Below are positions 1 through 61,717 of a DNA stretch of 64,000 nt, piece after piece. Numbering within the stretch: position 1 is the first letter of the stretch; the number at the start of each line of letters is the position of its first letter. The position numbers and the translations under genes are program-made. The stretch is taken from contig JBJDZI010000094.1 of the NCBI GenBank assembly GCA_051867925.1, positions 48,092 to 112,091 on the forward strand. The letters run 5' to 3'. The DNA comes from Eubacteriales bacterium. Its GTDB lineage: Bacteria > Bacillota > Clostridia > Oscillospirales > CAG-272. Below the pieces are notes generated by a model. That model had not been told where the DNA came from. It searched no databases and saw only the letters and a list, made by a program, of their open reading frames with translations.

Positions 1-1611
1 CAGACCGTCGCCGAGAGAGATAACTTCCCACTTGTCGTTGACAGCACCAAGGCTCATGCTGGAGTAGGTATCCTGCATACCGAGCTTCTGACCGCCCTGC
101 TCAAAGCTGAATGTACCGTCATCGTTTGCAACGACAGTCCAGATTTCGGTATCTGCATAGCCGCTTGCAACTTTGTCAGCAATCGTAACGTCTACACCCT
201 TCTGATAGTAGCCGGCAAGCTGAGACGAAAGTGCCTTATTGTTTGCGCCGTTGACGATCACTATCTTCATGCCGTCGGTCAGAGCATCTTCCAGAAGAGT
301 AGCACCGGTAGCGGGCTGTTCAGAAGTATCCGGCTTCTCGGTGGTTTCGGGATCATCATTGCCGCCCACCAGCGTGTAGGAGTCCAGCGTACAGCCGGAG
401 TTGAACTCTACCTTGCCCTTTTCGGATTTGTTATCATAGTTGATAATAGAACCGGTAACGGTGATGGTGTCGCCTACACCGATCTTGTCCGCACCGTCGC
501 CCTTCAGACGGAAGCACTGGATGGGCTTGTCGGTCAGACCTGCAACTACGATGGTAACGGTCACATTGTTGTAGCCGCTGTCAAATGCGGTATCCACGGA
601 GATAATCACTCCGGTCAACGTGTGGGTGCCTGCAAGTACGCCGCCGACTTCCAGTTCGTAAGCCGCATTGACAACTTCTTCTTCGGTCATCTCTTCGCCC
701 TGATCAATGACGGGGGCGTCACTTCCCTTTTCCAGAAACTCTGCGGGGAACTGAGACTTACCGGTGTTGTCAGCGTTAATGTAAGTGGACTCGGAAATGC
801 AGAAGGTGTCAAAGCTGCTGTAGGTACCGATTACGTAAGTGGTACCGTCTTCACAAGTGGTGAACCATGCGTTCACTTCCTGCTGATAAGACCAAACGGA
901 AGCGTTCTCTGCGGAGTAGCAGAGGTACTTGCTCATCTTGCCGGAGCCGTCCTCGTAAGGAACGGTGTATGCGTAAACATAGTTCTTCACACCGTCGATG
1001 GTGGTGTAGAACTTGTAGCCGCCGTCAACCACTTCAGCAAAGAATACTGCCGCCTTGGAGGAGTCCTCGGTGGACTTCAGATACTTGTCGTTCTGGGTCT
1101 CGGTGGTGGCGAAGAGAACCTTACCTGCGGTCATCTGCGTCATGAACATCAGATACTCTTTGCCTTCTTCAAGCTCGGTGGTGCTCTTGTTGTCGATTAC
1201 GGGGATGGAGCGGTTGAAGGATACTTCCTTGGTGTTACCTGCGGAATCCTTCACGGTTGCGGTCAGCACATACTTCAGTTCCGCATCGTTTTTGTCGGGA
1301 ATATCAATGGTCCAGTAGCCGGAAGTTTTGCTTTCCTTGATGGTGATCACGTCAACGTTGACCTTCCAGGTCACGGTGAATTGGGTAGCGCCGATCATCA
1401 TCTTAGCGGGCATATCGTAGTCACGGGGCGTGCTCTCAGCGGCATCCTTGTACAGGGCCTTCAGATAGTTCACGGCATCCGCAATCGTGCTCGCATTGGG
1501 ATCGTCGGTTACCGCGGCAGTGGTAGTAGCCGCTTCCTCGTCACTGCCGCAAGCCGCAAAACAGCCGAGGCAGAAAACAATCGCCAGAAGCAGAGAGAGA
1601 TACTTTTTCAT
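1..1611 (-). CDS. Lipoprotein of unknown function (C-terminal end cut by left window edge)
   Basis: Absent from the ORF track because it is open at the edge. My reverse-strand translation from ATG (complement of 1609-1611) stays open to base 1 (537 codons): MKKYLSLLLAIVFCLGCFAACGSDEEAATTTAAV... AAGGAG lies 5 nt upstream. Signal peptide with Cys lipobox. Segment IGVGDTITVTGSIINYDNKSEKGKVEF looks OB-fold-like. The + ORF 622..1641 is its antisense shadow. Confidence 0.75.
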   Translation of the reverse strand, partial: MKKYLSLLLAIVFCLGCFAACGSDEEAATTTAAVTDDPNASTIADAVNYLKALYKDAAESTPRDYDMPAKMMIGATQFTVTWKVNVDVITIKESKTSGYWTIDIPDKNDAELKYVLTATVKDSAGNTKEVSFNRSIPVIDNKSTTELEEGKEYLMFMTQMTAGKVLFATTETQNDKYLKSTEDSSKAAVFFAEVVDGGYKFYTTIDGVKNYVYAYTVPYEDGSGKMSKYLCYSAENASVWSYQQEVNAWFTTCEDGTTYVIGTYSSFDTFCISESTYINADNTGKSQFPAEFLEKGSDAPVIDQGEEMTEEEVVNAAYELEVGGVLAGTHTLTGVIISVDTAFDSGYNNVTVTIVVAGLTDKPIQCFRLKGDGADKIGVGDTITVTGSIINYDNKSEKGKVEFNSGCTLDSYTLVGGNDDPETTEKPDTSEQPATGATLLEDALTDGMKIVIVNGANNKALSSQLAGYYQKGVDVTIADKVASGYADTEIWTVVANDDGTFSFEQGGQKLGMQDTYSSMSLGAVNDKWEVISLGDGL

Positions 1612-1670
1612 AATGTCTCCTTAACTAATTTGATTATTTAAATCTTACAATTTAAATCTCGTTGATCCGA

Positions 1671-3014
1671 TCACTGCACAGTCACGTCATTGATCGAGAA
1701 GACCTTGATCTGATATGTACCGCTGAACACGTCCACGATACCCTTCACGTCAATGGTCTTTCCGCTGAAATAGCTTTCGGTGATCTTGTTTCCCTCCGCA
1801 TCCCGCAAAACGACGGTACGGATGGAGATGGTTTTGCCCGACGCATCCTGACAGGTGAGGGTCATGGCGCCGTTGGAATCGGTATCGCTGGTAGTGGTGT
1901 AAACGCTCTTGACCACAAGTCCCTTCATGGAAACGGAGGTTCCCAGCGCCAACTGCGCGTAAGGGAAGGTCTTCTGCTCGTCCCCCACGGTCAGCGTTAC
2001 GGAACTGTTGAAGGTTTCGATGGAGGTTTCGGTGTAAGCACCCGAATTGCTTTCGCTGATCAGTTTGATATTATCGGGATCGTCGGGATGTCTGACCTCG
2101 TAGGAAATATCCGACACCTGATAAGAATCGCCTGCTTCGTAGTACTGCACAGAGCCTACGATGCGAACGCGGTTGCCCACCGACAGGATACTCAGACCTG
2201 CACTGGACAGATTGTAACCGTAATAAACGTACATGCCGTAGTACAGACCGGTCTCAGCATCGTATTCCTCCACGTAGACCGACTGACCTGCGTTCTTGGT
2301 GATCACGCCTTCGAAGGCGACCTTGGTATTAGAATACTCCGCCACATTGCAACGCAGTTCCCGCAGAGTCAGCTCGGTCGCACCGCCGTAGTAGAAGTCG
2401 GGATCCTTTTCACCCGAATAAACCTTCAGTTTTTCTGCCTTTGCCTGTGCGATGGCGTTCATGCAAACGGTACCGTACCGGTTGTTGGCAGAATTGGATG
2501 CGATGGCAAGTCCGTTCTGCAGCAGTTCCACATTCAGATTGCGGTAGGGCGCGCTGTCGGAGGATTTGTACCAAACCCAAACCAGATAACGGCCACCGGT
2601 GGAATCGGCATTCCAGGTAGCAGTCTCAGACTCCACAATAATGGAAGTCGCAGACTTCAGTGCTTCCTTGGTAAAGTTGGAAGCCGCCTTGCCCCATTCC
2701 TCGATCTTACCGGTGGATTCGGGAGTGTTGACCGCAAGATATCTTGCTTTCAGCACGCCGCCCGGGAAATCGCCGCCGGGAAAATTGAAATGGGTGGTGT
2801 CACCGTCGACATAGGTCTTGACGGTAACTTTCTGCTTGGCAGTGGGAGATGACATATCCAGCGTCAGCGAAGCGGCGTAGTCGATATGTTCGACCTTCGG
2901 ATTGTCTTCGCCGGCAGGATCCTTGGAGGTGCAAGCCCCAAGGATTCCCACGAGTGTCGTCAGCGTCAGCAGAAGCACTGCCGCGCGGCGCAATTTTGAA
3001 AATTTCGTCTTCAT
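1671..3014 (-). CDS. Lipoprotein thermonuclease (staphylococcal nuclease/SNase fold) with C-terminal OB-fold-like barrels
   Basis: 447 aa. Signal plus lipobox LGILGAC. SNase signature: YVDGDTTHF, ARYLAVNTPES, GKAASNFTKEAL, GRYLVWVW, ELLQNGLA, AQAKAEKLKVYS. The C-terminal GKTIDVKGIVDVFSGTYQIKV is typical of OB-fold nucleic-acid-binding barrels. Confidence 0.85.
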   Translation of the reverse strand: MKTKFSKLRRAAVLLLTLTTLVGILGACTSKDPAGEDNPKVEHIDYAASLTLDMSSPTAKQKVTVKTYVDGDTTHFNFPGGDFPGGVLKARYLAVNTPESTGKIEEWGKAASNFTKEALKSATSIIVESETATWNADSTGGRYLVWVWYKSSDSAPYRNLNVELLQNGLAIASNSANNRYGTVCMNAIAQAKAEKLKVYSGEKDPDFYYGGATELTLRELRCNVAEYSNTKVAFEGVITKNAGQSVYVEEYDAETGLYYGMYVYYGYNLSSAGLSILSVGNRVRIVGSVQYYEAGDSYQVSDISYEVRHPDDPDNIKLISESNSGAYTETSIETFNSSVTLTVGDEQKTFPYAQLALGTSVSMKGLVVKSVYTTTSDTDSNGAMTLTCQDASGKTISIRTVVLRDAEGNKITESYFSGKTIDVKGIVDVFSGTYQIKVFSINDVTVQ

Positions 3015-3022
3015 ATCAGTCG

Positions 3023-4453
3023 TTAACCTGCCTGATATTCACATTCGGCGATGGCATCCTCGAATGCTTTCTTGATGGCTGCCGCAACGTCCTTATCGGT
3101 GAGAGAGAAGCACTTCTGCATCAAAAGTCCTACCTGGTCACGGGCAACGGAAGAGCCGTTGAATGCAGGGGAGGTGAAGTAGGCCGATTCCTGCTGCAGA
3201 CCGACCTTCACGCTCAGTGCCTGAATGTAGTCGCCGCCGTCAGCCTTATCCAAAAACTCGGTCTTGTAGATCTCGTCCTGTGCCGCAGACTTGATAACGG
3301 GCACATAGCCGGACTTCATGGAGAAGTCAGCCTGGAATTCGGGAGTGGTGGTCAAATACTTGACGAACAGCCAAGAAGCCATTACTTCCTGCGTGTTGGT
3401 CTTGTTGAAGATACAGAGGGAGGGTCCCTGAGAGATAACCTTGGGGTTGGAGGCATCTGCCTGAGGAATGGTAGTAATCCCTACCTCAAAGACATATTTG
3501 CCGTCAGCGTTCTTGTCGGGTTTCTGATAGGAAGCACCTGCGGAGGAACCGATGCACATATAACTGTTGCCTGCTTCGGATGCGTCCATGGTGAAAAGTT
3601 CGGAAGTGTAACCGCCGGACAGTTCCTCGGTGGTGACATAACCCTTCTGATACCAATCTCTGAAGCGGGTCACAAAGTCGATATTCTTCTGATTGTTAAA
3701 GAGAAAGTGCTCACCGGAAGAGCTGGTATAATCCGTGCCGTACTGCTCGCACATGGTGATAAACCAGTTTGCCTCGGAGTCGTAACCCAGAGGGATGCAG
3801 TCGGGATCAATCTCTTTAATCTTCTTGCATACTGCTTCCATTTCGTCCCAAGTGGTGGGAACCTGCAGATTGTTCTTTTCAAAGAAGGTCTTATTGTAGT
3901 ACAGAACCTCAGTAGACTTGGACAGAGGAAGAGAGTACATTTTGCCGTCTCCGAACTGAGCGCCTTCATCGTAGTAACCTTTGATGAAGTCGTCCTTCTG
4001 CTCACTGGTCAGACCGAGAATCTCGGTCGTGCCGTCTGCTCTCGTAACCTCAGCGGTGCTGCTGATGAGAGAATCCAGCGTAACTACAGCTTTCGCCAGA
4101 TTGTAGAGCGCAATATGGTCGGGATAGCAGTACGCGATATTAGGCTGGTTGCCCACATTGATCTCGGTAGAAATCTGGGAGCGAACGTCGTCGTAACTAC
4201 CTACCTGCTTGTGCTCAATGGTGATGTTGGGATACAGCTTGTTGAACTCAACGATATATTCGTCCAACACCTCACGCAGATTGGCACCCATGGTGTGGTA
4301 GAAGGTGATGGTAACCGGCGTTTCGGTGTCAAAACCTTCTTCGGGTACTGTGAAATCCGCTGCGGGAGTTTTTCCGCCACCGCAACCGGTCAGTACGAAG
4401 AGAGGCAGACACAGTGACGCTACTAAAAGCAGTGCTAACAGTGATTTTTTCAT
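3023..4453 (-). CDS. ABC transporter extracellular solute-binding lipoprotein (family 1 / CUT1 sugar-type)
   Basis: 476 aa. Signal peptide ending LTGCGGG (lipobox). Length and composition fit family-1 SBPs. Sits directly after two MalFG-type permeases. Confidence 0.85.
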   Translation of the reverse strand: MKKSLLALLLVASLCLPLFVLTGCGGGKTPAADFTVPEEGFDTETPVTITFYHTMGANLREVLDEYIVEFNKLYPNITIEHKQVGSYDDVRSQISTEINVGNQPNIAYCYPDHIALYNLAKAVVTLDSLISSTAEVTRADGTTEILGLTSEQKDDFIKGYYDEGAQFGDGKMYSLPLSKSTEVLYYNKTFFEKNNLQVPTTWDEMEAVCKKIKEIDPDCIPLGYDSEANWFITMCEQYGTDYTSSSGEHFLFNNQKNIDFVTRFRDWYQKGYVTTEELSGGYTSELFTMDASEAGNSYMCIGSSAGASYQKPDKNADGKYVFEVGITTIPQADASNPKVISQGPSLCIFNKTNTQEVMASWLFVKYLTTTPEFQADFSMKSGYVPVIKSAAQDEIYKTEFLDKADGGDYIQALSVKVGLQQESAYFTSPAFNGSSVARDQVGLLMQKCFSLTDKDVAAAIKKAFEDAIAECEYQAG

Positions 4454-4508
4454 ACAATACTTCCTTTCATTCTTCGGAAATCTATAATAGACGGGATTTT
4501 CCGCACTA

Positions 4509-5402
4509 TTAACCCTTAATGCCGCTTCTCGATACGCCCTTCATAATGTACTTTCTCAGAAAGATGAACACTAAGAACAGCGGGAAAGAGACGATGGCAA
4601 CCGCCGCCATCTGCACGGGGATATCCGCGTTGCCTTCCACGTCGGTGAAGGCATTGCGCAGACCGTTGGTGATGAGCTGATACTCTTCTTCATTGGCAAC
4701 CAGTCGGGGCCAAACATAGGAGTTCCACGCGCCCATCATCTTCAGAATGGTGATGGAAATCAGCGTAGGCAGAGCCAGCGGGATCATCACCTTCCACAGA
4801 TACTTGAAGTCACCGGTACCGTCTACCTTAGCGGCAAGGTACAGTTCGTTGGGAATTTGCATGAAGTTCTGCCGTAACAAATAGATGTAGAAAACGCTCA
4901 CCAGAAAAGGCACGATCAGAACGGTGTAGGTATTCATCCAGCCGAAATCGTTGACGGTGGCGTAGTTGGTGATGGTGAACAGTTCACCGGGGATCATCAT
5001 GGTACCCAGTAAAGCGGCAAACAGTGCATTCTTTCCCTTGAATTCCAGTCTTGCGAAAGCGAAAGCCGACAGCACGGTGATCACCAGCGACAGGATGGTA
5101 GACACGATGCCTACGATCATGGTGTTGATGAAAAGCTGTCCCAGATTACCGGTATTGAAGGCATCCACGTAGTTGCGCAGACGGATGACCTCAGGCCACA
5201 GAGTGGGGACTGCACGGTTATACTCATTCAGCGTTTTCACCGAGGAGATGAGCATAAAGTAGAAGGGGAAGATCACGATGATCGCCATTGCGATCAGAAA
5301 GGTGTACAGCAAGACCTTTACCGCGACTTTGCCGACTTTTTGACGGGCAGAGACCTTTTTCAGATCCTGCTCCTGCATTGTTTTGGTTTGCAGTTCAGAC
5401 AT
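4509..5402 (-). CDS. Carbohydrate-type ABC transporter permease (MalG-like)
   Basis: 297 aa, multi-TM. EAA-loop region LAAKVDGTGDFKYLWKVMIPLALP. Confidence 0.9.
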   Translation of the reverse strand: MSELQTKTMQEQDLKKVSARQKVGKVAVKVLLYTFLIAMAIIVIFPFYFMLISSVKTLNEYNRAVPTLWPEVIRLRNYVDAFNTGNLGQLFINTMIVGIVSTILSLVITVLSAFAFARLEFKGKNALFAALLGTMMIPGELFTITNYATVNDFGWMNTYTVLIVPFLVSVFYIYLLRQNFMQIPNELYLAAKVDGTGDFKYLWKVMIPLALPTLISITILKMMGAWNSYVWPRLVANEEEYQLITNGLRNAFTDVEGNADIPVQMAAVAIVSFPLFLVFIFLRKYIMKGVSRSGIKG

Positions 5403-5414
5403 TTCGGCACCTCC

Positions 5415-6356
5415 TTAGTAATGGGTCTTTTTCTTGCTGACGTACATATTGATCATCGTCACCACGAAAATAATGCCGAAGAGGATCAGTGCCGCCGCAC
5501 TTGCACGACCTTGTTGGGTTGTAAGCGAATCGTAAATATAGCCGACCATCGTATTGAGCTTGCCGGGATCGCCCGCAGGGCCCATATCCTCGCCGAAAAT
5601 ACCGACAATGCTGGAGTATTCCTTGAAACCACCGATAAAACCGGTGATGACAACGTAAGCCAACATGGGGGAAAGGAGCGGTACGGTGATGCGGGTAAAT
5701 ACTCTGCGTCTGGAAGTACCGTCCACCTTAGCGGCGTCGTAATACTGCTTGTTGATGCTCTGCAAACCGCCCAACAGAATCAGAATCTTAAAGGGCAATG
5801 CATTCCAAACGATGTAGACCACCATGACCACGATGTTCGCCGCGTAGGACGAGCCGGAGTTGATCCAGTTGATGGGTTCGCCTCCGAAAAATTCGATCAC
5901 GTTGTTGATGATACCGGAGGTGATGATCAGTTGGTTCTCACTGCCAAACGCCGTGCCTACCATGTTAAACATCGCAGCGAATACCATACCGATGGCAATG
6001 GAGTTGGTCACGTAAGGCAGGAAGAAGATGGTCTGCAGCAGCTTCTGCAGAGGCTTGATAGAGTTGAGGCAGACTGCAATCAGCAGTGCCAGAATCGTAG
6101 AAATCGGAACGGTCAGTACGCAAAGGAGCATCGTATTCTTGAGACAGGTCAAAAATCCTTTGTACTGGACTACCTTCACGAAGTTATTAAAACCGAAGCT
6201 GTAGGTCTGACCGCCTACTGCCGCCATGGAATTATAGCCTTCCAAAAACGCCATCCGAACGGTATTGATAATGGGCCATACCGTAAAGATCAGCAGAAGG
6301 ATAATGGCAGGCGCGAGGTAGATCCACGCTTTCCAAGAATGTTTACTCTCAACCAT
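5415..6356 (-). CDS. Carbohydrate-type ABC transporter permease (MalF-like)
   Basis: 313 aa, multi-TM. EAA-loop YYDAAKVDGTSRRRVFTRITVPLLSP. Overlaps the ATPase gene by 8 nt. Confidence 0.9.
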   Translation of the reverse strand: MVESKHSWKAWIYLAPAIILLLIFTVWPIINTVRMAFLEGYNSMAAVGGQTYSFGFNNFVKVVQYKGFLTCLKNTMLLCVLTVPISTILALLIAVCLNSIKPLQKLLQTIFFLPYVTNSIAIGMVFAAMFNMVGTAFGSENQLIITSGIINNVIEFFGGEPINWINSGSSYAANIVVMVVYIVWNALPFKILILLGGLQSINKQYYDAAKVDGTSRRRVFTRITVPLLSPMLAYVVITGFIGGFKEYSSIVGIFGEDMGPAGDPGKLNTMVGYIYDSLTTQQGRASAAALILFGIIFVVTMINMYVSKKKTHY

Positions 6357-7458
6357 CGGACTTCACCCCGAAGTAGATCCTGCTCTCATCTTCCTTGCTG
6401 AAGAGGAAGACCTTGTGCGGCTTCAGCGAGTAGCTGACGGTCGCACTTGCCGCCACCTGATTGTCAGCGTCGATGATGGAACGCACGGTGGCATTCAGCG
6501 AAGCGGAATGGGTGGAAACCACGCTGACGTCACGTCCCATGACCTCAACGCTGTTGAGATTGCAGACCAGAGGTCCGTTCGCATCCAGCACGAAACCTTC
6601 GGGACGGATACCCACGGTCACGGGCTGATCGCTGACGCCCTTGACATCCAATACAGCGGCATCGCCGATGTACAGTTTTTCGCCCTTGACCTCGCCGTCA
6701 AACACATTCACGGGAGGAGTACCCAAGAACTTGGCAACGAACAGGTTGGTGGGATCGTCGTAAACATCCTGAGGTTTGCCGATCTGCTGGACAACGCCCA
6801 GCTTCATCACGACAATCATATCGGAGATGGACATCGCCTCTTCCTGGTCGTGGGTAACGAAAATGGTGGTGATCCCGGTCTCCTTCTGAATCCGACGGAT
6901 CTCCTCACGGGTCTGCAAACGCAGACGGGCGTCCAAGTTGGACAGAGGCTCGTCCAGAAGCAGAACCTTGGGCATCTTCACCAGCGCGCGGGCGATGGCC
7001 ACTCTCTGCTGCTGACCACCGGAAAGTTCGCTGGGCTTTCTGTCCATGAGTTCGTCGATCTGCACCAGTTTAGCGGCGTTGTAAGCGCGCTCCAGCATCT
7101 CGTCCTTGGACAGCTTGTCCGCGCCCTTCAGATTCTGCAGGGGGAACAGAATGTTCTGCTTGACGGTCATATGAGGATACAGCGCATAGTTCTGGAACAC
7201 CAGACCTACGCCGCGGTTCTCTGCCGCCAGTTCGGTAACATCATCGTCGCCGAAGAAAATCTTGCCCGCAGAGGGCTTCTGGAGTCCACTGATCATGTAC
7301 AGCGTAGTGGACTTACCGCAACCGGAGGGGCCCAGCAGACCGATCAGCTTTCCGTCGGGAATCGTGAAGGTGAAGTTATTGACCGCGACAACTTCCTCGT
7401 TTGCCTTTTTATTGCGGCTGGGAAAGATCTTGGTCAGATTTTGCAGTTCAACTTTCAT
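6349..7458 (-). CDS. ABC transporter ATP-binding protein (MalK/MsmX/UgpC type)
   Basis: 369 aa. Walker A GPSGCGKST, signature LSGGQQQRVAIARAL, Walker B LLLDEPLS, C-terminal MalK-like regulatory barrel. AAAGGAA SD upstream of ATG 7458. Confidence 0.92.
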   Translation of the reverse strand: MKVELQNLTKIFPSRNKKANEEVVAVNNFTFTIPDGKLIGLLGPSGCGKSTTLYMISGLQKPSAGKIFFGDDDVTELAAENRGVGLVFQNYALYPHMTVKQNILFPLQNLKGADKLSKDEMLERAYNAAKLVQIDELMDRKPSELSGGQQQRVAIARALVKMPKVLLLDEPLSNLDARLRLQTREEIRRIQKETGITTIFVTHDQEEAMSISDMIVVMKLGVVQQIGKPQDVYDDPTNLFVAKFLGTPPVNVFDGEVKGEKLYIGDAAVLDVKGVSDQPVTVGIRPEGFVLDANGPLVCNLNSVEVMGRDVSVVSTHSASLNATVRSIIDADNQVAASATVSYSLKPHKVFLFSKEDESRIYFGVKSDG

Positions 7459-7483
7459 ATGTATTTCCTTTCTCGTGAATGAG

Positions 7484-7513
7484 AATGTTATATATAATAA
7501 TGTTATATATAAT
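7484..7513. repeat. Perfect 15-bp tandem duplication AATGTTATATATAAT x2 in the promoter region of the ABC/nuclease operon
   Basis: Read directly: 7484-7498 and 7499-7513 are identical. Lies 26-55 nt upstream of the ATPase start codon. Confidence 0.9.
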
Positions 7514-7595
7514 TAGGTAGAGTTCCGACAGCATTTTGGAATAGCGCATCGCACTATTCCAAATGGGGAGAATCGGCTGAATATTTCGGAAGGAT

Positions 7596-8381
7596 TTAAT
7601 AGTCAGCGTTTTGTGCTTTTTCTGTGTGGAGTTTCTGTTTGTATGCCATCAGATCCTCGGGGGTGTCGAAGATCTTCTGACTTGCCATGTCCACCGTCAC
7701 TGTATGCGACAGTTTATCGTGGATAGGTGTGCGGGCGCGGGTAGCCAGTACCGCCACGATCTGGATCACCAGAATCGCCAGAATCACCAGCAATCCGAAG
7801 ATGCCGGTCACTCCGAACCAAAACATCAAAAGAAGCATCACGGGGATCATGGTTTCCACGGTGTATTTGCCCAGCACCGTGCGGACAAACAGAAGCAGGG
7901 GCGTCAGTTTCACGCCATCCTCCCGCATCACACCGATGCCGAAGATTTTTTTGCCCACCGTCTGCCCGTTGCCAAGCACCAGCGGCACCAAAAACTCCAG
8001 TAACAAATGTCCGAATAAAATGGCAAACACCACGATGAGGAAGGTCAGATTGACCATCATCTGATAGGCGTAATTGGCGTCTTTGTCGCTTGTAAAGGCT
8101 TTGTATGCCTCGTCGTACAATGCTTTTTCCTCATCTGTTTGGGCATCGTATTCCGACGTGCTGATTTTCAGTTCAACACCATATTCCTGCTCACAGCGGA
8201 GCTTGACACTTTCCAGTCTGTCGGAATAATCGTCATAACCGAAAAGCGCAGACAAAAGGAGAGCCGCCCCGACAACCGCGATCACAAGCAAGATGAGATC
8301 GAACAACCATGCGGATACCCGTTTCCAAAGATCCGCTCTTTGCAAATCGTACATCAGGAGCCCTCCTACAATGGCGGACAC
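7596..8381 (-). CDS. RDD family membrane protein
   Basis: 261 aa. N-terminal LWKRVSAWLFDLILLVI motif and TM pattern typical of RDD domain proteins. TGn-TATAAT promoter-like sequence on the minus strand near 8415-8440. Confidence 0.8.
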   Translation of the reverse strand: MSAIVGGLLMYDLQRADLWKRVSAWLFDLILLVIAVVGAALLLSALFGYDDYSDRLESVKLRCEQEYGVELKISTSEYDAQTDEEKALYDEAYKAFTSDKDANYAYQMMVNLTFLIVVFAILFGHLLLEFLVPLVLGNGQTVGKKIFGIGVMREDGVKLTPLLLFVRTVLGKYTVETMIPVMLLLMFWFGVTGIFGLLVILAILVIQIVAVLATRARTPIHDKLSHTVTVDMASQKIFDTPEDLMAYKQKLHTEKAQNADY

Positions 8382-8671
8382 TCCCGCCTAAGCGCATTTA
8401 TACGATTTCATTATAGCACAAATCACGAAAAAAACAACACATTTTGCAGAATTTTTTCACATTTTCGGCTTTTTCGTCATACTGCACAACTCCAAGTTTA
8501 AATTTTGTAAATGATGCATATCGCATAATGCAAGGGCTTCCTGCACATGAAGGGACACCCAAAGGCGAAGAAGTCGTCGCGCAATTTCATTAGAATACAG
8601 TGCTAATCGGGTAGAATTTTGCCGTTTCCTTTCTTGGTTTTCGATCGTTCGGAATCATATTGGAATTCTGA

Positions 8672-8869
8672 GCTGTCGCAATATGCCCGGAGCGAATACA
8701 ACTGATATTCCGCTCCCTAAGGCACACCGATAGAGTGTTATTTTTCGATACTCGTTAGTTTGTTCTGAGTGAAGAAGAAAACCATCTCAGACGTCGAAGT
8801 TTTCGTAGCAACCGCAACGCAGTTGCTACACTCCTCATCAGACGCTCCGCCTTTTCCTTGCTCGGCAGT
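8672..8869 (+). repeat. Intergenic ~190-nt repeat family, copy A (degenerate central stem, extra inserted hairpin)
   Basis: Aligns by eye block-for-block with 29675-29860 and 50780-50960: GCTGTCGCAATA..ACTGATAT..AGTGTT..GTTAGTTTGTTCTGAG..ACCATCTCAGACGTCGAAGTT..TTCCTTGCTCGGCAGT. Confidence 0.85.
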
Positions 8870-8995
8870 GTGAACCGTACATAACAACTCGCCCGGCAAG
8901 GATTTGCCGGACTTCAATATAGTTCTTGGAGGTTTGGAACCTTATTTTGAGTAGGTTCCAAGAAAAAAATCGGGCGGCAAGGATTTGCCGCCCAC

Positions 8996-9107
8996 AGAGT
9001 GTCGAAAAAGTCTTTCAGAAAATCGAGAGGAGGGCGAAACCATCTCAAACGCCGAAGTTTTCGCCCTCCTCTCGAGCTCTCCACCCACTTCCTTGGCTGG
9101 CGGCACT
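8996..9107 (+). repeat. Intergenic ~190-nt repeat family, copy D (3' portion only)
   Basis: AGAGTGT.., then perfect 14-bp stem GAGAGGAGGGCGAA (9025-9038) / TTCGCCCTCCTCTC (9060-9073) with loop ACCATCTCAAACGCCGAAGT, then CTCTCCACCCACTTCCTTGGCTGGCGGCACT. Confidence 0.8.
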
Positions 9108-9245
9108 CTAAATTTATAGTTTATCGACAGACTGAGCCCGGCAAGAATTTGCCGCCCATTTTGATAAAAGATCTTGGAGGCGCAGGGAACCTCTTTCAAG
9201 AAGGTTTCTGCCGAGGCTTGGGGTAAAACCCCGATTTGATTAAAA

Positions 9246-16213: not shown

Positions 16214-16311
16214 CTCCAACCAAGCGCAAGGGCGGCAAGAATTTGTCGCCCTTGTACAATTGTTTATAGAGTTCCGCGCACTTTTTTAAAAAAGTGCCTG
16301 ATTGGTTGGAG
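16214..16311. terminator. Nested inverted repeats between convergent genes (probable bidirectional terminator structure)
   Basis: Outer 10-bp arms CTCCAACCAA (16214-16223) / TTGGTTGGAG (16302-16311). Inner hairpins CAAGGGCGGCAA-GAAT-TTGTCGCCCTTG (16227-16254) and GCACTTTTTT/AAAAAAGTGC (about 16277-16298). The latter spans the PPTase stop codon. Confidence 0.5.
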
Positions 16312-19225: not shown

Positions 19226-19302
19226 GGCGGAGTAGCTCAGCTGGCTAGAGCAACCGGTTCATACCCGGTAGGTCATGGGTTCAAGTCCAATCTCCGCTAC
19301 CA
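19226..19302 (+). tRNA. tRNA-Met (anticodon CAT, elongator-like; tRNA-Ile2/lysidine cannot be excluded)
   Basis: 77 nt cloverleaf folded by hand: acceptor GGCGGAG/CTCCGCT (G1-U72), D arm GCTC-AGCTGGCTA-GAGC, anticodon arm ACCGG-TTCATAC-CCGGT, T arm with GTTCAAGTC, encoded CCA. One G-A mismatch in the T stem. Confidence 0.9.
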
Positions 19303-19326
19303 ATTATCCGCAAAGCGGATAATTTC

Positions 19327-19401
19327 GGCCCGTTGGTCAAGCGGTTAAGACACGGCCCTTTCACGGCTGTAACATGGGTTCGATTCCCGTACGGGTCACC
19401 A
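19327..19401 (+). tRNA. tRNA-Glu (anticodon TTC)
   Basis: 75 nt: GGCCCGT..GGTCAAGCGGTTAAGAC..anticodon loop CTTTCAC..GGTTCGATTCC..ACGGGTC-A-CCA. Classic Firmicutes tRNA-Glu sequence. Confidence 0.9.
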
Positions 19402-59173: not shown

Positions 59174-61717
59174 TCACTTGCACTCGTACCAGGTCTTGCC
59201 GCAGGACACCTCTGCTGTCAGAGGAACCAGCGCGTCAAATGCCCGCTCCATTTCCTCTTTCAAGAGAGCAGCGGCGGCTTCCGCACAATCGTCGCGCACC
59301 TCAAGGATCAATTCGTCGTGAACCTGGAGGATCAGTTTGGCATCCATCTCCGATCGGGAGAGCGCATCCTCCACGCGGATCATCGCCACCTTGATGATGT
59401 CGGCGGCAGAGCCTTGAATGGGGGAGTTCATTGCCACCCGCTCGCCGAAGGCGCGCATCATGGCTTTGGAGGAGGTCAGTTCGGGGATATACCGCCGTCT
59501 GCCGAAGAGGGTTTTGACGAAGCCCTTCTCCTTCCCTTCCTCGATGGTGGAATGCAGGTAAGCATCCACCCCGCTGTAAGTCTCTTTGTAAGAGCGGATA
59601 TATTCACCCGCCTGATATTTGGTGATTCCCAGATCCTGTGCCAGAGCAAAGTCCGAAATGCCGTACACGATACCGAAGTTCACCGCCTTCGCCCGTTTCC
59701 GCAGTTCGGGCGTGACCTCTGCTTCGGGCACACCGAAGACTTGGGACGCGGTGACGGTGTGGATGTCGGTACCTTTGCGGAAGGCGTCGATCATAATGGG
59801 ATCGCCCGCACAGTGCGCCAGCAGGCGAAGTTCGATCTGCGAATAGTCGGCGTCCACCAGGGTGTAGCCCTCCCGTGCCACGAAAGCGCGGCGCAGTTCC
59901 CTGCCCAGTTCGGTGCGGATGGGGATATTCTGCAGGTTCGGCTCGGTAGAGGAGAGCCGTCCCGTAGCGGTCAGTGCCTGCTTGAAGGTGGTGTGAACCC
60001 GCCCCTCCATATCAGCCACCGCCAACAAGCCCTCCGCATAGGTGGAGCGGAGTTTGGTCACCTGACGGTAGTCGAGGATCAGATCAATGATGGGATGGAT
60101 AGGGCGCAGTTTCTCCAAAACCTCCGCATTGGTGGAGTAGCCCGTCTTGGTTTTCTTGAAAAAGGGGAGTTTCAGTTCATCGAACAGTACCTCCCCCAGT
60201 TGTTTGGGAGAATTGATGTTGAACTCGTGTCCCGCCATACGGTAGATCTCCGCCATATCGCCTGCGGCGGCGATCTCCAGCGCAACCGAAAACGCCTGCA
60301 GGGCGTTCCGATCCACCAAAAAGCCCCGATTTTCCATATTGTACAGGACTCTCGCCAGCGGAAATTCCATGGTTTCGTAAAGGTTCAGACATTCGTCTGC
60401 CTTCATGCGGGCGGTCAGCGGCTCGATCAGCTGACGGATCGCCTCGGCACTCTCGGTGGGCGCGCCCAGATAGGCTCCCGCAATCTTGGCAAGGGAGGGC
60501 GTACTGTCGGAGGAATTGATGACATACGCCGCCAGCAAAACATCGAATGAGCAACGGAAGGATGCCGCATCAAAGTGCGGCAGAATCTCGTCCAGCGTAT
60601 GCAGGAGCGTTTTCAGATCGTACACCGCAAAGGAAAGGTCGGTCTCTTTCAGCCAGTCGGCGATTTGTTCCAGCGTGTCGCCTGCAAGCAGACCTTCCCC
60701 CAGCGCACAGGAGAGACAGCGATTGCCGTCGCAAACCTCGATGGCATCATCGGTCAGCCACAGCGCCACAGGAGCAGTGAGACCTGCCGTCACCAGCAGA
60801 TCGGCGGTGACCGCCTCCACGGGCATCTCCTCTGCCGCCTCGGCAGCGGGGAGATCCGCGTCCAGTCCCATCCGTTTGATGTAGCCTGCAAACTCCAGTT
60901 CTGCAAACAGGGAGCGAAGGGCGGCTCGATCAGGGGCTTTCATCACCAGTGCTTCGGGTGCAAAATCCAGCGGCATATCGCGAACGATCCGCGCCAGTTT
61001 TTGCGACAGATACGCCTGCTCCTTCTGCCGGCGAAGATTGGTCAGCACCTTCTCGCTTGCCTTCACCTCGTCGATGTGGGCGTAGATCCCATCCAGACTG
61101 CCGTAGGCGGCGATCAGTTTGGCGGCGGTTTTCTCTCCCACCCCCGCAACGCCGGGGATATTGTCGGACGAATCGCCCATCAGGGCTTTCATATCCACGA
61201 ACTGCTCCACCCGCACGCCGTAATCGGCTTGGAAGCGGTCAGGCGTATAGGGGACATTCTCGTTGTTTTTGGCAAGGAGAACGGTAGTCTTTTCGGAGAT
61301 AAGTTGCAGGCTGTCCCGGTCGCCGGTGAGGATGAAGCACTCCCCGCCGTCCTTTTCCCAAAGAGCGGAGAGGGTACCCAGCCAGTCGTCCGCCTCATAG
61401 CCTTCCTTCTCCAGGATGGGAATGCCCATGGCGTGCAAAAATCGTTTGGCATAGGGGAATTGCATCAACAGTTCGGGGGGCGTGCCGTGCCGCCCCGCCT
61501 TATATCCGTCGTACATTTTGTGGCGGAAGGTGGGCGCATGAACGTCAAACGCCACCGCAACGGCATCGGGCTTCAGCGCGTCCAATTGACTGAGCAGAAC
61601 GTTCACGAAGCCGTAAACGGCATGAGTAAACACGCCCGCGGAATTGGTCAGCGGACGCACGCCGAAGTATTGGCGGTTCAGAATCGAGTTGCCGTCGATC
61701 AGCAGAAGTTTTTTCAT
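59174..61717 (-). CDS. polA: DNA polymerase I
   Basis: 847 aa. 5'-nuclease N-terminus LLLIDGNSILNRQYF, GDSSDNIPGVAGVGEKTA. Polymerase motifs DYSQIELR, RRAKAVNFGIVYG, QVHDELILE. Confidence 0.95.
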   Translation of the reverse strand: MKKLLLIDGNSILNRQYFGVRPLTNSAGVFTHAVYGFVNVLLSQLDALKPDAVAVAFDVHAPTFRHKMYDGYKAGRHGTPPELLMQFPYAKRFLHAMGIPILEKEGYEADDWLGTLSALWEKDGGECFILTGDRDSLQLISEKTTVLLAKNNENVPYTPDRFQADYGVRVEQFVDMKALMGDSSDNIPGVAGVGEKTAAKLIAAYGSLDGIYAHIDEVKASEKVLTNLRRQKEQAYLSQKLARIVRDMPLDFAPEALVMKAPDRAALRSLFAELEFAGYIKRMGLDADLPAAEAAEEMPVEAVTADLLVTAGLTAPVALWLTDDAIEVCDGNRCLSCALGEGLLAGDTLEQIADWLKETDLSFAVYDLKTLLHTLDEILPHFDAASFRCSFDVLLAAYVINSSDSTPSLAKIAGAYLGAPTESAEAIRQLIEPLTARMKADECLNLYETMEFPLARVLYNMENRGFLVDRNALQAFSVALEIAAAGDMAEIYRMAGHEFNINSPKQLGEVLFDELKLPFFKKTKTGYSTNAEVLEKLRPIHPIIDLILDYRQVTKLRSTYAEGLLAVADMEGRVHTTFKQALTATGRLSSTEPNLQNIPIRTELGRELRRAFVAREGYTLVDADYSQIELRLLAHCAGDPIMIDAFRKGTDIHTVTASQVFGVPEAEVTPELRKRAKAVNFGIVYGISDFALAQDLGITKYQAGEYIRSYKETYSGVDAYLHSTIEEGKEKGFVKTLFGRRRYIPELTSSKAMMRAFGERVAMNSPIQGSAADIIKVAMIRVEDALSRSEMDAKLILQVHDELILEVRDDCAEAAAALLKEEMERAFDALVPLTAEVSCGKTWYECK

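Follow-up and report, generated by a model that had tools for sequence, protein, structure and literature searches.

The window analysed here, a stretch of 64,000 nucleotides, carries at its start a cluster of seven genes on the minus strand, in the order RDD membrane protein, ABC ATPase, permease 1, permease 2, binding lipoprotein, SNase lipoprotein and OB-fold lipoprotein. The ATPase (6349..7458, minus strand; 369 aa; PF00005, E 1.2e-37) is of the MalK/UgpC type with a C-terminal regulatory domain, and has weak matches to CysA_C_terminal and OB_MalK. The two permeases are of the CUT1 type, one UgpA/MalF-like (5415..6356, minus strand; 313 aa; PF00528, E 2.6e-17) and the other UgpE/MalG-like (4509..5402, minus strand; 297 aa; PF00528, E 1.1e-15). 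They are followed by a substrate-binding lipoprotein (3023..4453, minus strand; 476 aa; lipobox LTGC with Cys24; SBP_bac_8, E 3.9e-40), a nuclease lipoprotein (1671..3014, minus strand; 447 aa; lipobox LGAC with Cys28; PF00565, E 3.4e-10) and a surface lipoprotein (1..1611, minus strand; lipobox FAAC) that is truncated by the window start (537 of ~589 aa). Pfam and NCBIfam searches agree on these assignments (ABC_tran, two BPD_transp_1, SBP_bac_8/1 and SNase). The junctions from the ATPase through the last lipoprotein are -8, 12, 55, 8 and 59 nt, exactly as the earlier note had given them for six same-strand genes, the first being an 8-nt overlap of the permease 1 gene with the ATPase stop codon. 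The six genes stand as described, but the last one continues past the window start, so that the 3′ end of the cluster lies outside. The cluster also does not begin with the ATPase, as had been assumed; its conserved portion starts one gene further upstream, with the RDD gene.

The RDD-family integral membrane protein (7596..8381, minus strand; Pfam PF06271, E 2.8e-14) has a probable ATG at 8354, following the call in L001. In 68 related loci its gene directly precedes that of the ATPase, in the same orientation, with a median ORF gap of ~55 nt (down to 12–32 nt in some loci), and it is probably the first gene of the operon. A candidate promoter upstream of it (8410..8437, minus strand), located by eye, has an extended -10 element, TGcTATAAT (8418-8410), with TTGTTT 16 nt upstream; it was missed in a consensus scan because the -35 element is weak, and its promoter role is one that we only infer from the sequence. 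The region between the RDD and ATPase genes (7459..7595, minus strand) contains an imperfect hairpin (TTGGAATAG...CTATTCCAA), a tandem 15-bp repeat (7479-7508) and a ribosome-binding site (GAAAGGAAA). The tandem repeat is not conserved among the orthologous loci, where just the AT-rich tract and the ribosome-binding site recur. In the consensus scan, the intergenic gaps of the cluster are free of terminator-like sites, in agreement with the earlier reading of these gaps, and the site counts are those expected from shuffling. The same scan finds a weak promoter-like match (9/12) between the permease and binding-protein genes, which would not part the nuclease from the binding protein. No regulator, riboswitch or conserved operator tying expression of the locus to the supply of nucleic acid or phosphate was found.

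The seven-gene order is present in 80 of 80 related species-level genomes, wherever the contig reaches, and the cluster is thus more than a chance arrangement; as the 80 loci come from a single order-level clade and have binding-protein identities of at least 61%, this conservation is partly inheritance. The co-occurrence of nuclease and binding protein, which the earlier note had raised as a subject for a neighbourhood survey, is found throughout these loci. The ATPase is 74–93% identical across the 80 loci, a median of 6 nt separates the ORFs of the binding protein and the SNase across 79 loci, and a median of 23 nt those of the SNase and the last lipoprotein. The genes upstream of the RDD gene are mostly unrelated from locus to locus.

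This arrangement bears on the possibility that the transporter is an ordinary CUT1 importer of oligosaccharides or polyols, functionally uncoupled from neighbouring surface nucleases that act in biofilm or extracellular DNA remodelling or in defence against extracellular traps. Members of the SBP_bac_1/8 and MalK-type ATPase families are mostly sugar importers, and database annotation names the binding lipoprotein a 'multiple sugar transport system' protein. On the other hand, the adjacency to the nuclease is universal, with a spacing of a few nucleotides both in the window and across the loci, the recurrent neighbours of the related loci include no glycoside hydrolase or sugar kinase, and sugar binders are among the weaker structural matches of the binding protein (E 1e-12 or weaker). 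We regard this explanation as very improbable.

The nuclease consists of an SNase domain (residues ~55–203) followed by two OB-like β-barrels (~228–302 and ~336–446). The SNase catalytic blocks noted earlier are present (VDGDT, residues 69–73, and RYLAVNTPE, residues 91–99), and a Foldseek comparison with S. aureus nuclease gives an E value of 1e-10 and TM scores of 0.84–0.87. The equivalents of D19, D21, T22, R35, T41, P42, E43 and R87 are invariant in 76 SNase orthologues, and the position of the Ca2+ ligand D40 is Asn in 68 of them and Asp in the other 8. The two C-terminal barrels, also proposed before, do not reach the Pfam threshold (20.1 bits versus 27), but in the confident AlphaFold model (pLDDT 87.9) both have the β1-β2-β3-helix-β4-β5 topology of the OB type. 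The lipoprotein assignments hold as well, as the lipobox cysteines are present, and Cys24 of the binding protein and Cys28 of the nuclease are invariant in their orthologue alignments. The products of micrococcal nuclease are 3′-phosphorylated mono-, di- and short oligonucleotides.

The last lipoprotein, whose complete copy in a 97%-identical strain has 589 aa, has an Ig-like region at its N terminus and, at residues ~308–411, a conserved module of the OB-like type. The copy in the window scores below the threshold for an OB fold, but the orthologues pass it, with one to many PF01336 domains at 28.6–62.7 bits. These orthologues are always lipoproteins and vary greatly in length (231–2203 aa). 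We propose that the last lipoprotein is a nucleic-acid capture protein.

The continuation past the window edge is seen in a contig of the same species (L083, 97.2% nucleotide identity to the window). One protein just past the edge has three tandem repeats of the OB module of the last lipoprotein, and further surface proteins with OB folds are also encoded there, as is a candidate secreted RNase. The contig then meets a convergent operon for SurE, two NrnA-like DHH enzymes, a dGTPase-like HD protein, uridine kinase, pyrimidine-nucleoside phosphorylase, cytidine deaminase and a probable phosphopentomutase. Among the 57 loci that extend at least 5 kb past the SNase gene, SurE is found near this gene in 38 and DHH/DHHA1 genes in 39. 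The SurE-DHH block is inverted or on the opposite side in three loci (L050, L072 and L073), yet still adjacent. SurE, NrnA and deo-type genes are common housekeeping genes.

[quoted passage not shown] The sequence search gives an E value of 1.5e-25 and the profile search one of 1e-22, and the 312 aligned positions are ~28% identical. The ligand in 7C0F was reportedly carried along from the expression host and may not be the physiological one, and the protein reportedly also binds glycerophosphocholine (GPC). Residues Y87, S180, S303/S304 and Y383 of the window protein are aligned with residues mutated by the 7C0F authors or with conserved phosphate contacts, and show no variation among 24 homologues; these Tyr/Ser contacts are also found in glycerol-3-phosphate (G3P) and GPC binders, and hence mark a phosphate-bearing ligand, not a nucleotide specifically. 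At four positions that were mutated in 7C0F, the Tyr and Ser are retained, Thr is replaced by Ser, and Asn by Asp. Nine of ten 7C0F variant sequences score lower than the wild type against the window protein. The AlphaFold model of the binding protein is poor (pLDDT 55). In the supplement of PMC12718374, 7C0F is given as a U3G-binding protein, and that paper reports a volume of 1291 Å3 for its dinucleotide pocket, compared to about 315–320 in G3P binders. Based on these comparisons, the binding lipoprotein is a candidate di-/oligonucleotide or nucleotide binder.

A different phosphate-bearing ligand is proposed if the system is a Ugp-like phosphate scavenger, importing sn-glycerol-3-phosphate or glycerophosphodiesters, with the nuclease merely freeing phosphate compounds or being co-regulated under phosphate limitation. 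The top NCBIfam matches of all four transporter components are indeed UgpC, UgpA, UgpE and UgpB, but the scores are far under the equivalog cut-offs (342 bits versus 432 for the ATPase, 64 versus 335 for permease 1, 106 versus 297 for permease 2, and 71 versus 411 for the binding protein). The retained Tyr/Ser positions are shared with UgpB, and the reported binding of GPC by 7C0F points the same way, as does the reported link of M. pneumoniae MPN133-136 to glycerol or phospholipid-derived nutrients. In comparison, the UgpB structures match the binding protein with E values of 1e-12 to 6e-14, 29–43 bits below 7C0F, and the recurrent neighbours of the related loci include no GlpQ/UgpQ or glycerol-metabolism gene and are all nucleotide enzymes. 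Ugp-like scavenging is thus an improbable function for this locus.

Only slightly less doubtful is the possibility that surface enzymes digest the nucleic acid to monomers first, and that the importer takes up mononucleotides (3′-NMP, 2′,3′-cNMP or 5′-NMP) or nucleosides. The exonuclease activity of SNase gives 3′-mononucleotides, SurE, a 5′/3′-nucleotidase, is the most constant neighbour, and a monophosphate would suit the conserved phosphate contacts equally well. However, the two NrnA-like oligonucleotide-degrading enzymes are equally constant and would be needless for monomers, 7C0F, the nearest relative of known structure, has a dinucleotide bound in its large pocket, and nucleosides are normally imported by BMP-family (CUT2) systems in Bacillota.

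Overall, as judged from sequence comparisons, the cluster likely serves a gut Clostridia bacterium of the Oscillospirales type in scavenging extracellular nucleic acids and taking them up. The earlier proposal that the importer takes up products of the nuclease is supported by the conserved adjacency, the relation to 7C0F, the conserved phosphate-contact residues and the nucleotide-processing neighbourhood. In such a system, lipid- and wall-anchored OB-fold proteins, namely the last lipoprotein and the three-repeat protein of the near-identical strain, would hold extracellular DNA or RNA at the cell surface. The SNase-OB-OB lipoprotein would cut it, possibly helped by the neighbouring candidate secreted RNase, into products expected to be like those of micrococcal nuclease. 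The binding lipoprotein would capture a small product carrying a phosphodiester or phosphate, a dinucleotide or an oligonucleotide of very short length being the most likely, and hand it to the CUT1 permease pair for import driven by the MalK-type ATPase. In the cytoplasm, the two NrnA-like DHH/DHHA1 phosphoesterases, SurE and the HD phosphohydrolase would reduce the imports to nucleosides, which may then enter salvage or catabolism through the kinase, phosphorylase, deaminase and phosphopentomutase of the convergent operon.

Among known systems, 7C0F and the window binding protein are both of the CUT1 type, with the aligned phosphate-coordinating Tyr/Ser residues in common. The window protein exceeds 7C0F by 70 aa, contains an insertion near residues 130–165, and has the one Asn-to-Asp change among the mutated ligand residues; we know of no nuclease partner described for 7C0F. 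The UgpBAEC transporters of E. coli and M. tuberculosis share the architecture and the phosphate contacts, but differ by the sub-cut-off scores, the greater distance of UgpB compared to 7C0F, and a neighbourhood without glycerophosphodiesterase or glycerol genes. Surface nucleases with OB folds are found in other Bacillota, including B. subtilis YhcR (OB, SNase and 5′-nucleotidase domains), which like SNase yields 3′-nucleotides, and the LPXTG proteins SpnA of S. pyogenes and SsnA of S. suis. As in the window, a surface-tethered nuclease is joined to nucleic-acid-binding OB folds. However, these enzymes are sortase-anchored and are not known to have an adjoining ABC importer, whereas the window nuclease is lipid-anchored and its gene starts 8 nt past the stop codon of the binding protein.

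Hujiaoplasma nucleasis zrk29 (Izemoplasmatales), which grows on nucleic acids, has a DNA/RNA-induced 'nucleic acid-degradation locus' with an extracellular ribonuclease, NrnA and ABC transporters (PMC10470597). It resembles the window cluster in gene content, the transporter type and nuclease family being undefined in the portion of that report at hand. A close parallel in organization is the M. agalactiae operon MAG_5030-MAG_5070, in which an SNase lipoprotein (MAG_5040) is co-transcribed with a sugar-type ABC transporter; kindred operons include M. hyopneumoniae Mhp379, M. pneumoniae MPN133, M. hominis MHO_0730 and M. bovis MbovNase, and it has been hypothesized that the nuclease supplies nucleotide precursors for import by the adjoining transporter (PMC3585158, PMC9740415). 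The window cluster is a new, unusually complete example of an already known, putative kind of system, for which mycoplasma researchers have put forward the same idea since 2007–2013. The earlier claim of a substrate class undescribed for CUT1 transporters fails because both these operons, with the same hypothesis, and a CUT1 dinucleotide-binding protein (Chandravanshi et al., FEBS J 2021, cited by PMC12718374) were already published. Judging from the published descriptions, the Mollicutes operons appear homologous to the window cluster, sharing an SNase surface lipoprotein, a binding-protein-like lipoprotein (P80 in Mollicutes), a sugar-type ATPase and two permeases. The gene order is different, binding protein-nuclease-ATPase-permeases in Mycoplasma and transporter genes first in the window. 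Moreover, the window nuclease has two additional OB-like domains, and its cluster, which lies next to the NrnA/SurE/nucleoside-catabolism operon, includes the RDD protein as well as dedicated OB-fold proteins proposed to act in capture. Finally, in contrast to the nucleotide-auxotrophic mycoplasmas, the window host is a free-living gut commensal, presumably with biosynthetic capacity.

The gene cluster lies entirely on the minus strand. It contains the genes for an RDD-family membrane protein (7596-8381; PF06271, 2.8e-14), a MalK/UgpC-type ATPase (6349-7458; PF00005 above threshold), two CUT1 permeases (5415-6356 and 4509-5402; PF00528 above threshold for both), a binding lipoprotein (3023-4453; PF13416, 3.9e-40, and PF01547, 5.3e-24), a lipoprotein of the staphylococcal nuclease (SNase) family (1671-3014) and a last lipoprotein, which starts at 1611 and is open at the start of the window (537 codons, with the stop codon absent). 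The earlier note had placed six genes, from the ATPase onward, on one strand; all are present there, and their Pfam and NCBIfam families agree. The junctions, an 8-nt overlap followed by gaps of 12, 55, 8 and 59 nt, exactly reproduce the lengths given before. The extent of the locus is revised on two points, as the last gene is cut by the window edge and the unit begins one gene further upstream, with the RDD gene.

The absence of terminators between the genes is borne out by a consensus scan, with 0 terminator-like sites in any intergenic gap and a count for the region equal to the shuffle expectation. The 55-nt gap before the binding-protein gene contains a single weak promoter-like match in this type of scan (9/12). 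Such a match at this position is common for ABC operons, and it would leave the nuclease and the binding protein coupled. Lipoprotein signal peptides are present at the N-termini of all three extracytoplasmic proteins (LTGC, LGAC and FAAC), and the lipobox cysteine shows no variation among the aligned orthologues of the binding protein and of the SNase.

A search of species-representative genomes with marker peptides of the binding protein gave at least 599 matching stretches, of which 585 encode a relative. The best 80 of these loci were used as the comparative set. All are from metagenome-assembled genomes of Clostridia (labeled Oscillospiraceae, Acutalibacteraceae, Faecousia, Eubacteriales and similar), and their sources are the guts of ruminants, horses, chickens and humans. 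With the seven window proteins as tblastn queries, the order RDD-ATPase-permease-permease-binding protein-SNase-lipoprotein is found in 80 of the 80 best loci, as far as the contigs reach. Whether the SNase and the transporter co-occur in relatives had been raised as a check, and they stay together throughout the 80, within the limits of each contig. Identity to the window proteins is 65-93% for the transporter parts, 61-88% for the binding protein, 48-84% for the SNase and 27-57% for the last lipoprotein. ORF-based gaps are short, with medians of 6 nt between the binding protein and the SNase (79 loci) and 23 nt between the SNase and the last lipoprotein. For a single transcript of the nuclease, binding-protein and transporter genes, the indirect evidence consists of the 8-nt junction, the lack of terminator-like sites in the gaps and the short gaps across the 79 loci. 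Clustering of all the ORFs shows that the genes upstream of RDD are mostly unrelated from locus to locus, which means that the cluster is kept as a unit in its own right, not through general synteny. That an unrelated sugar importer merely sits beside nuclease genes is very improbable, being contradicted by this universal tight linkage and by the absence of glycoside genes among the recurrent neighbours.

In 68 related loci, the RDD and ATPase genes are direct neighbours on one strand, RDD first, with a median gap of about 55 nt (ORF-based). This spacer often leaves too little room for a terminator and a promoter of its own, as at 12-32 nt in L008, L009, L046 and L054. The RDD gene is probably the first of the operon.

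An Rfam search finds no riboswitch or leader upstream of the cluster, and the 68 aligned RDD-to-ATPase spacers have only AT-richness and a ribosome-binding site in common. The window carries a tandem 15-bp repeat (7479-7508; ATGAGAATGTTATAT / ATAATAATGTTATAT on the plus strand) with a palindromic TATATA core, just upstream of the ribosome-binding site of the ATPase gene. This repeat does not recur in the corresponding spacers of other species among the 68, and no operator is proposed on that ground. Beyond the RDD gene is a non-coding stretch of approximately 860 nt (8382-9245), with three copies of a hairpin element (core GGCAAATYCTTGCC, at 8895, 8976 and 9140) and a pair of 27-nt repeats at 8779/9037. 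A fourth copy, with one mismatch, is located at 16234 (0.03 matches expected by chance). The elements in the non-coding stretch look like REP-like repeats, and they have no match in Rfam. Genes for tRNA-Met(CAT) and tRNA-Glu(TTC) are found in tandem at 19226-19401 on the plus strand.

The SNase assignment is clear, with a PF00565 score of 40.8 bits against a cut-off of 21. In the AlphaFold model (mean pLDDT 87.9, from 82 homologues), the N-terminal domain superimposes on staphylococcal nuclease structures with TM scores of 0.84-0.87 and an rmsd of about 2.7 Å (E 1e-10). The catalytic residues were mapped by alignment to S. aureus nuclease A. The equivalents of D19, D21, T22, R35, T41, P42, E43 and R87 are invariant in 76 orthologues; in window numbering, those of R35, E43, R87, D21 and T41 are Arg91, Glu99, Arg142, Asp72 and Thr97. 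The catalytic residues Arg35, Glu43 and Arg87 and the Ca2+ ligands Asp21, Asp40 and Thr41 are all represented, apart from one conservative deviation in a metal ligand of the predicted nuclease. The equivalent of Asp40 is Asn96 in the window protein, and this position is Asn in 68 of the 76 orthologues and Asp in 8.

The nuclease has two further domains (about residues 228-302 and 336-446), described before as OB-like barrels. In the model, both show the strand-strand-strand-helix-strand-strand order of the OB fold, and two such barrels are probable. Support from sequence is weak: at the C-terminus, the Pfam OB match reaches 20.1 bits (cut-off 27), and 6 of 26 orthologues have weak matches; hhalign relates the C-terminal region to the OB module of the last lipoprotein with a probability of 23%, a weak match; and a profile search of the PDB with this region gives no match. 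Surface nucleases with OB folds are familiar in Bacillota, for example YhcR, SpnA and SsnA.

The product of the last gene is a lipoprotein in essentially all the loci, and its length varies from 231 to 2203 aa. The OB-like segment attributed to it is found in the orthologues, which have one to many PF01336 OB-fold nucleic-acid-binding domains (whole-protein scores of 28.6-62.7 bits), but the window copy has no PF01336 match above threshold. A module at about residues 308-411 is common to the window copy and the orthologues. The protein is fast-evolving, modular and surface-exposed, properties that fit a putative role in substrate capture.

The transporter belongs to the CUT1 family (TC 3.A.1.1). 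Its binding protein is a cluster D / family 1 solute-binding protein by PF13416 and PF01547, and its relatives in the PDB are all CUT1 binding proteins. The two permeases are of the MalF/MalG (UgpA/UgpE) type. The ATPase, of the MalK/UgpC type, aligns over its full length with the UgpC, GlcV and MalK models, and its C-terminal domain is just under the cut-offs (CysA_C_terminal, 26.1/29.7; OB_MalK, 24.6/27).

The closest solved structure to the binding protein is the 7C0F series from Thermus thermophilus (E 1.5e-25, 93 bits with phmmer), with only 28% identity over 312 aligned positions. UgpB and sugar binders score 51 bits or less, with E values of only 1e-12 for the UgpB structures and 1e-10 or worse for oligosaccharide binders. 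A profile of 24 homologues ranks the structures alike (83 bits for 7C0F versus 54). In the PDB, 7C0F carries just the molecule name 'sugar ABC transporter'. In the supplement of PMC12718374 it appears as 'U3G binding protein', with uridylyl-3'-5'-phosphoguanosine as the ligand, and that paper cites Chandravanshi et al. As described there, the pocket volume is 1291 Å3 in 7C0F versus about 315-320 Å3 in glycerol-3-phosphate (G3P) binders, and two Tyr and two Ser residues holding the phosphate show strict conservation across UgpB, the glycerophosphocholine binder and the U3G binder and are not kept in glucose binders (PMC12718374).

The ligand residues of 7C0F were deduced from its deposited mutant sequences, which were set against wild type in an alignment that includes the window protein. 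Only four mutated positions are readable. The Y to F and S to A mutations correspond to Tyr87 and Ser180 of the window protein, which has the same residues, and the T to A and N to A mutations correspond to Ser303 and Asp112. Comparison with a C-terminal fragment makes no further position readable. The alignment of 24 sequences shows no variation at Tyr87, Ser180, Ser303/Ser304 and Tyr383, the last of which is in the shared GYVPV motif. Moreover, 9 of the 10 variant sequences of 7C0F score under wild type against the window protein, as expected if it has the residues that were mutated. The AlphaFold model of the binding protein has a pLDDT of 55, too low to be usable, from an alignment of 24 close homologues only (at least 71% identity).

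Taken together, the ligand very probably carries a phosphate or phosphodiester, and a dinucleotide-sized molecule is the best single guess. The conserved residues alone fit a dinucleotide, a mononucleotide and a glycerophosphodiester alike. The last of these would make the transporter a Ugp-like system, which is decidedly unlikely: every Ugp equivalog cut-off of NCBIfam is missed by a wide margin (UgpB 71/411, UgpA 64/335, UgpE 106/297 and UgpC 342/432 bits), and glycerol-related neighbours are absent. Import of mononucleotides instead of oligonucleotides is unlikely too, if a little less so; it is disfavoured by the large pocket of 7C0F as the nearest solved structure and by the constant presence of an NrnA-like pair among the neighbouring genes.

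The N-terminal lobe of the binding protein (residues 1-189) also matches the NCBIfam model 'P68 family surface lipoprotein' of mycoplasmas (1.3e-10, model positions 1-171 of 669). This partial match is the sole hint of common descent with the components of the Mycoplasma nuclease operon (MAG_5030-5070). It was dropped as a lead, as the literature searched ties the P68 family to no nuclease operon; P68 there denotes mhp390 of M. hyopneumoniae or a P48-like protein of M. bovis.

The continuation of the locus is seen in L083, a contig of the same species from another sample that is 97.2% identical to window positions 1-7203. Its last lipoprotein has 589 aa and is on the same strand. This gene is followed by one for a secreted protein of 555 aa (L083 7393-9060, plus strand) with three tandem repeats of ~118 aa, near-identical to each other, of which ~100 aa per repeat correspond to the OB-like module of the lipoprotein. 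Its C-terminus has a PxTG-like anchor with a hydrophobic tail. Next is a 426-aa secreted protein or lipoprotein with a Big_2 domain (L083 9166-10446, plus strand; protein cluster c20), a candidate second extracellular nuclease of the locus. Its C-terminus gives a sub-threshold match to the Pfam 'Ribonuclease' family (9e-4, measured on the cluster representative from L008), and E/R/R/H motifs like those of RNase Sa (YYEIDI, RGAARIVY and YNHYNDF) can be read by eye; a MAFFT alignment to barnase is ambiguous. A promoter-like site (10/12) is located just upstream of this gene, at L083 9139-9167.

A convergent operon follows (L083 10602-17362, minus strand), encoding eight proteins. Cytidine deaminase, pyrimidine-nucleoside phosphorylase and uridine kinase pass the NCBIfam cut-offs, as does SurE (TIGR00087, 151.7 bits versus 135.1). 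Two NrnA-like DHH/DHHA1 proteins (230 and 234 bits, under the cut-off of 350) and an HD dGTPase-like protein are under the cut-offs, and a Metalloenzyme-family protein, a probable phosphopentomutase whose gene is cut by the end of the locus, has a Pfam family match only. A deo-type nucleoside operon is here fused, unusually, with oligonucleotide-finishing enzymes.

Of the loci, 57 extend 5 kb or more past the SNase gene; among these, DHH/DHHA1 genes are found near the cluster in 39, SurE in 38, the HD protein in 18 and the Big_2/RNase candidate in 11 (12 of all fetched loci). In several of the remaining loci, long lipoprotein genes use up the flank. Genes for a 5'-3' exonuclease, a PHP phosphoesterase, an NT5C-guanylate kinase fusion, a PRK-family kinase and DeoC also recur as neighbours. 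Although inverted or on the opposite side in L050, L072 and L073, the SurE-DHH-DHH-HD block still adjoins the cluster there, which argues for selection on proximity. The window itself has a homologue of the exonuclease that neighbours the cluster in some species, at 60938-61717 on the minus strand (31% identity, E 3e-27).

From gene content, order, conservation and family assignments, we infer the following scheme. Extracellular DNA or RNA would be held by the OB-fold surface proteins and cut by the SNase lipoprotein, and possibly also by the candidate secreted RNase. The established products of micrococcal nuclease are 3'-phosphomononucleotides and 3'-phospho-oligonucleotides. The binding lipoprotein would pass a small product to the CUT1 permease, with a dinucleotide or very short oligonucleotide as the most likely one, and the MalK-type ATPase would drive its import. 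Conversion of the imports to nucleosides may then fall to the NrnA-like proteins, a type known as nanoRNases and pAp phosphatases, together with the 5'/3'-nucleotidase SurE and the HD protein, and the nucleosides would be salvaged or catabolised by the adjoining nucleoside enzymes.

The proposal that the importer takes up products of the surface nuclease is plausible in this light and has gained considerable comparative support. In its full form, a dedicated importer of nuclease-made dinucleotides or short oligonucleotides, at the core of a nucleic-acid utilisation locus in hundreds of gut Oscillospirales species and sharing ancestry with the Mycoplasma nuclease-ABC operons, it is put forward tentatively, as a real possibility that falls short of being probable.

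The system is not of a new kind, however. The earlier note had been aware of no CUT1 transporter tied to nuclease products, but there are two precedents, the Mycoplasma operons and the dinucleotide-binding CUT1 protein from Thermus. In M. agalactiae, the gene for an SNase lipoprotein (MAG_5040) is located between that for P80 (MAG_5030), modelled as a sugar-type solute-binding protein, and those for a sugar-type ABC ATPase and two permeases; the P80, nuclease and transporter genes are on one polycistronic RNA, and the published proposal is that the nuclease provides the transporter with nucleotide precursors and that P80 acts as the binding protein (PMC3585158, PMC9740415). A 'nucleic acid-degradation locus' induced by DNA/RNA, with an extracellular RNase, NrnA and ABC transporters, is described for Hujiaoplasma nucleasis in PMC10470597.

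If the oligonucleotide-importer reading is true, very abundant, mostly uncultured gut bacteria would use a sugar-family ABC importer for oligonucleotide nutrition, nucleic acids from diet, host and dead microbes would form a major and hitherto unrecognised nutrient niche for these commensals, and the long-orphaned U3G-binding protein and the Mycoplasma operons would have a physiological explanation. To our knowledge, transport of nucleic-acid fragments by the Mycoplasma, Thermus or Hujiaoplasma systems has no direct demonstration, and we know of no test of the Mycoplasma nuclease-importer hypothesis since it was raised in 2007-2013. The locus provides a richer comparative framework for this hypothesis, with capture proteins, nuclease, importer and an adjacent degradation-finishing operon, and it points to concrete candidate ligands (NpN, NpNp and 3'-NMP).

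Such a system in gut Oscillospirales appears to be undescribed in the literature searched, as do its completeness (RDD protein, OB-fold capture proteins and SNase-OB-OB architecture) and its linkage to an NrnA/SurE/nucleoside operon. As in the Mollicutes operon, compared by its description in PMC3585158, the SNase lipoprotein adjoins a binding-protein-like lipoprotein and a sugar-type ABC ATPase with two permeases. The window binding protein is nearer to 7C0F than to binders of other ligand classes. The locus also suggests what the Thermus dinucleotide-binding protein of known structure may do physiologically.
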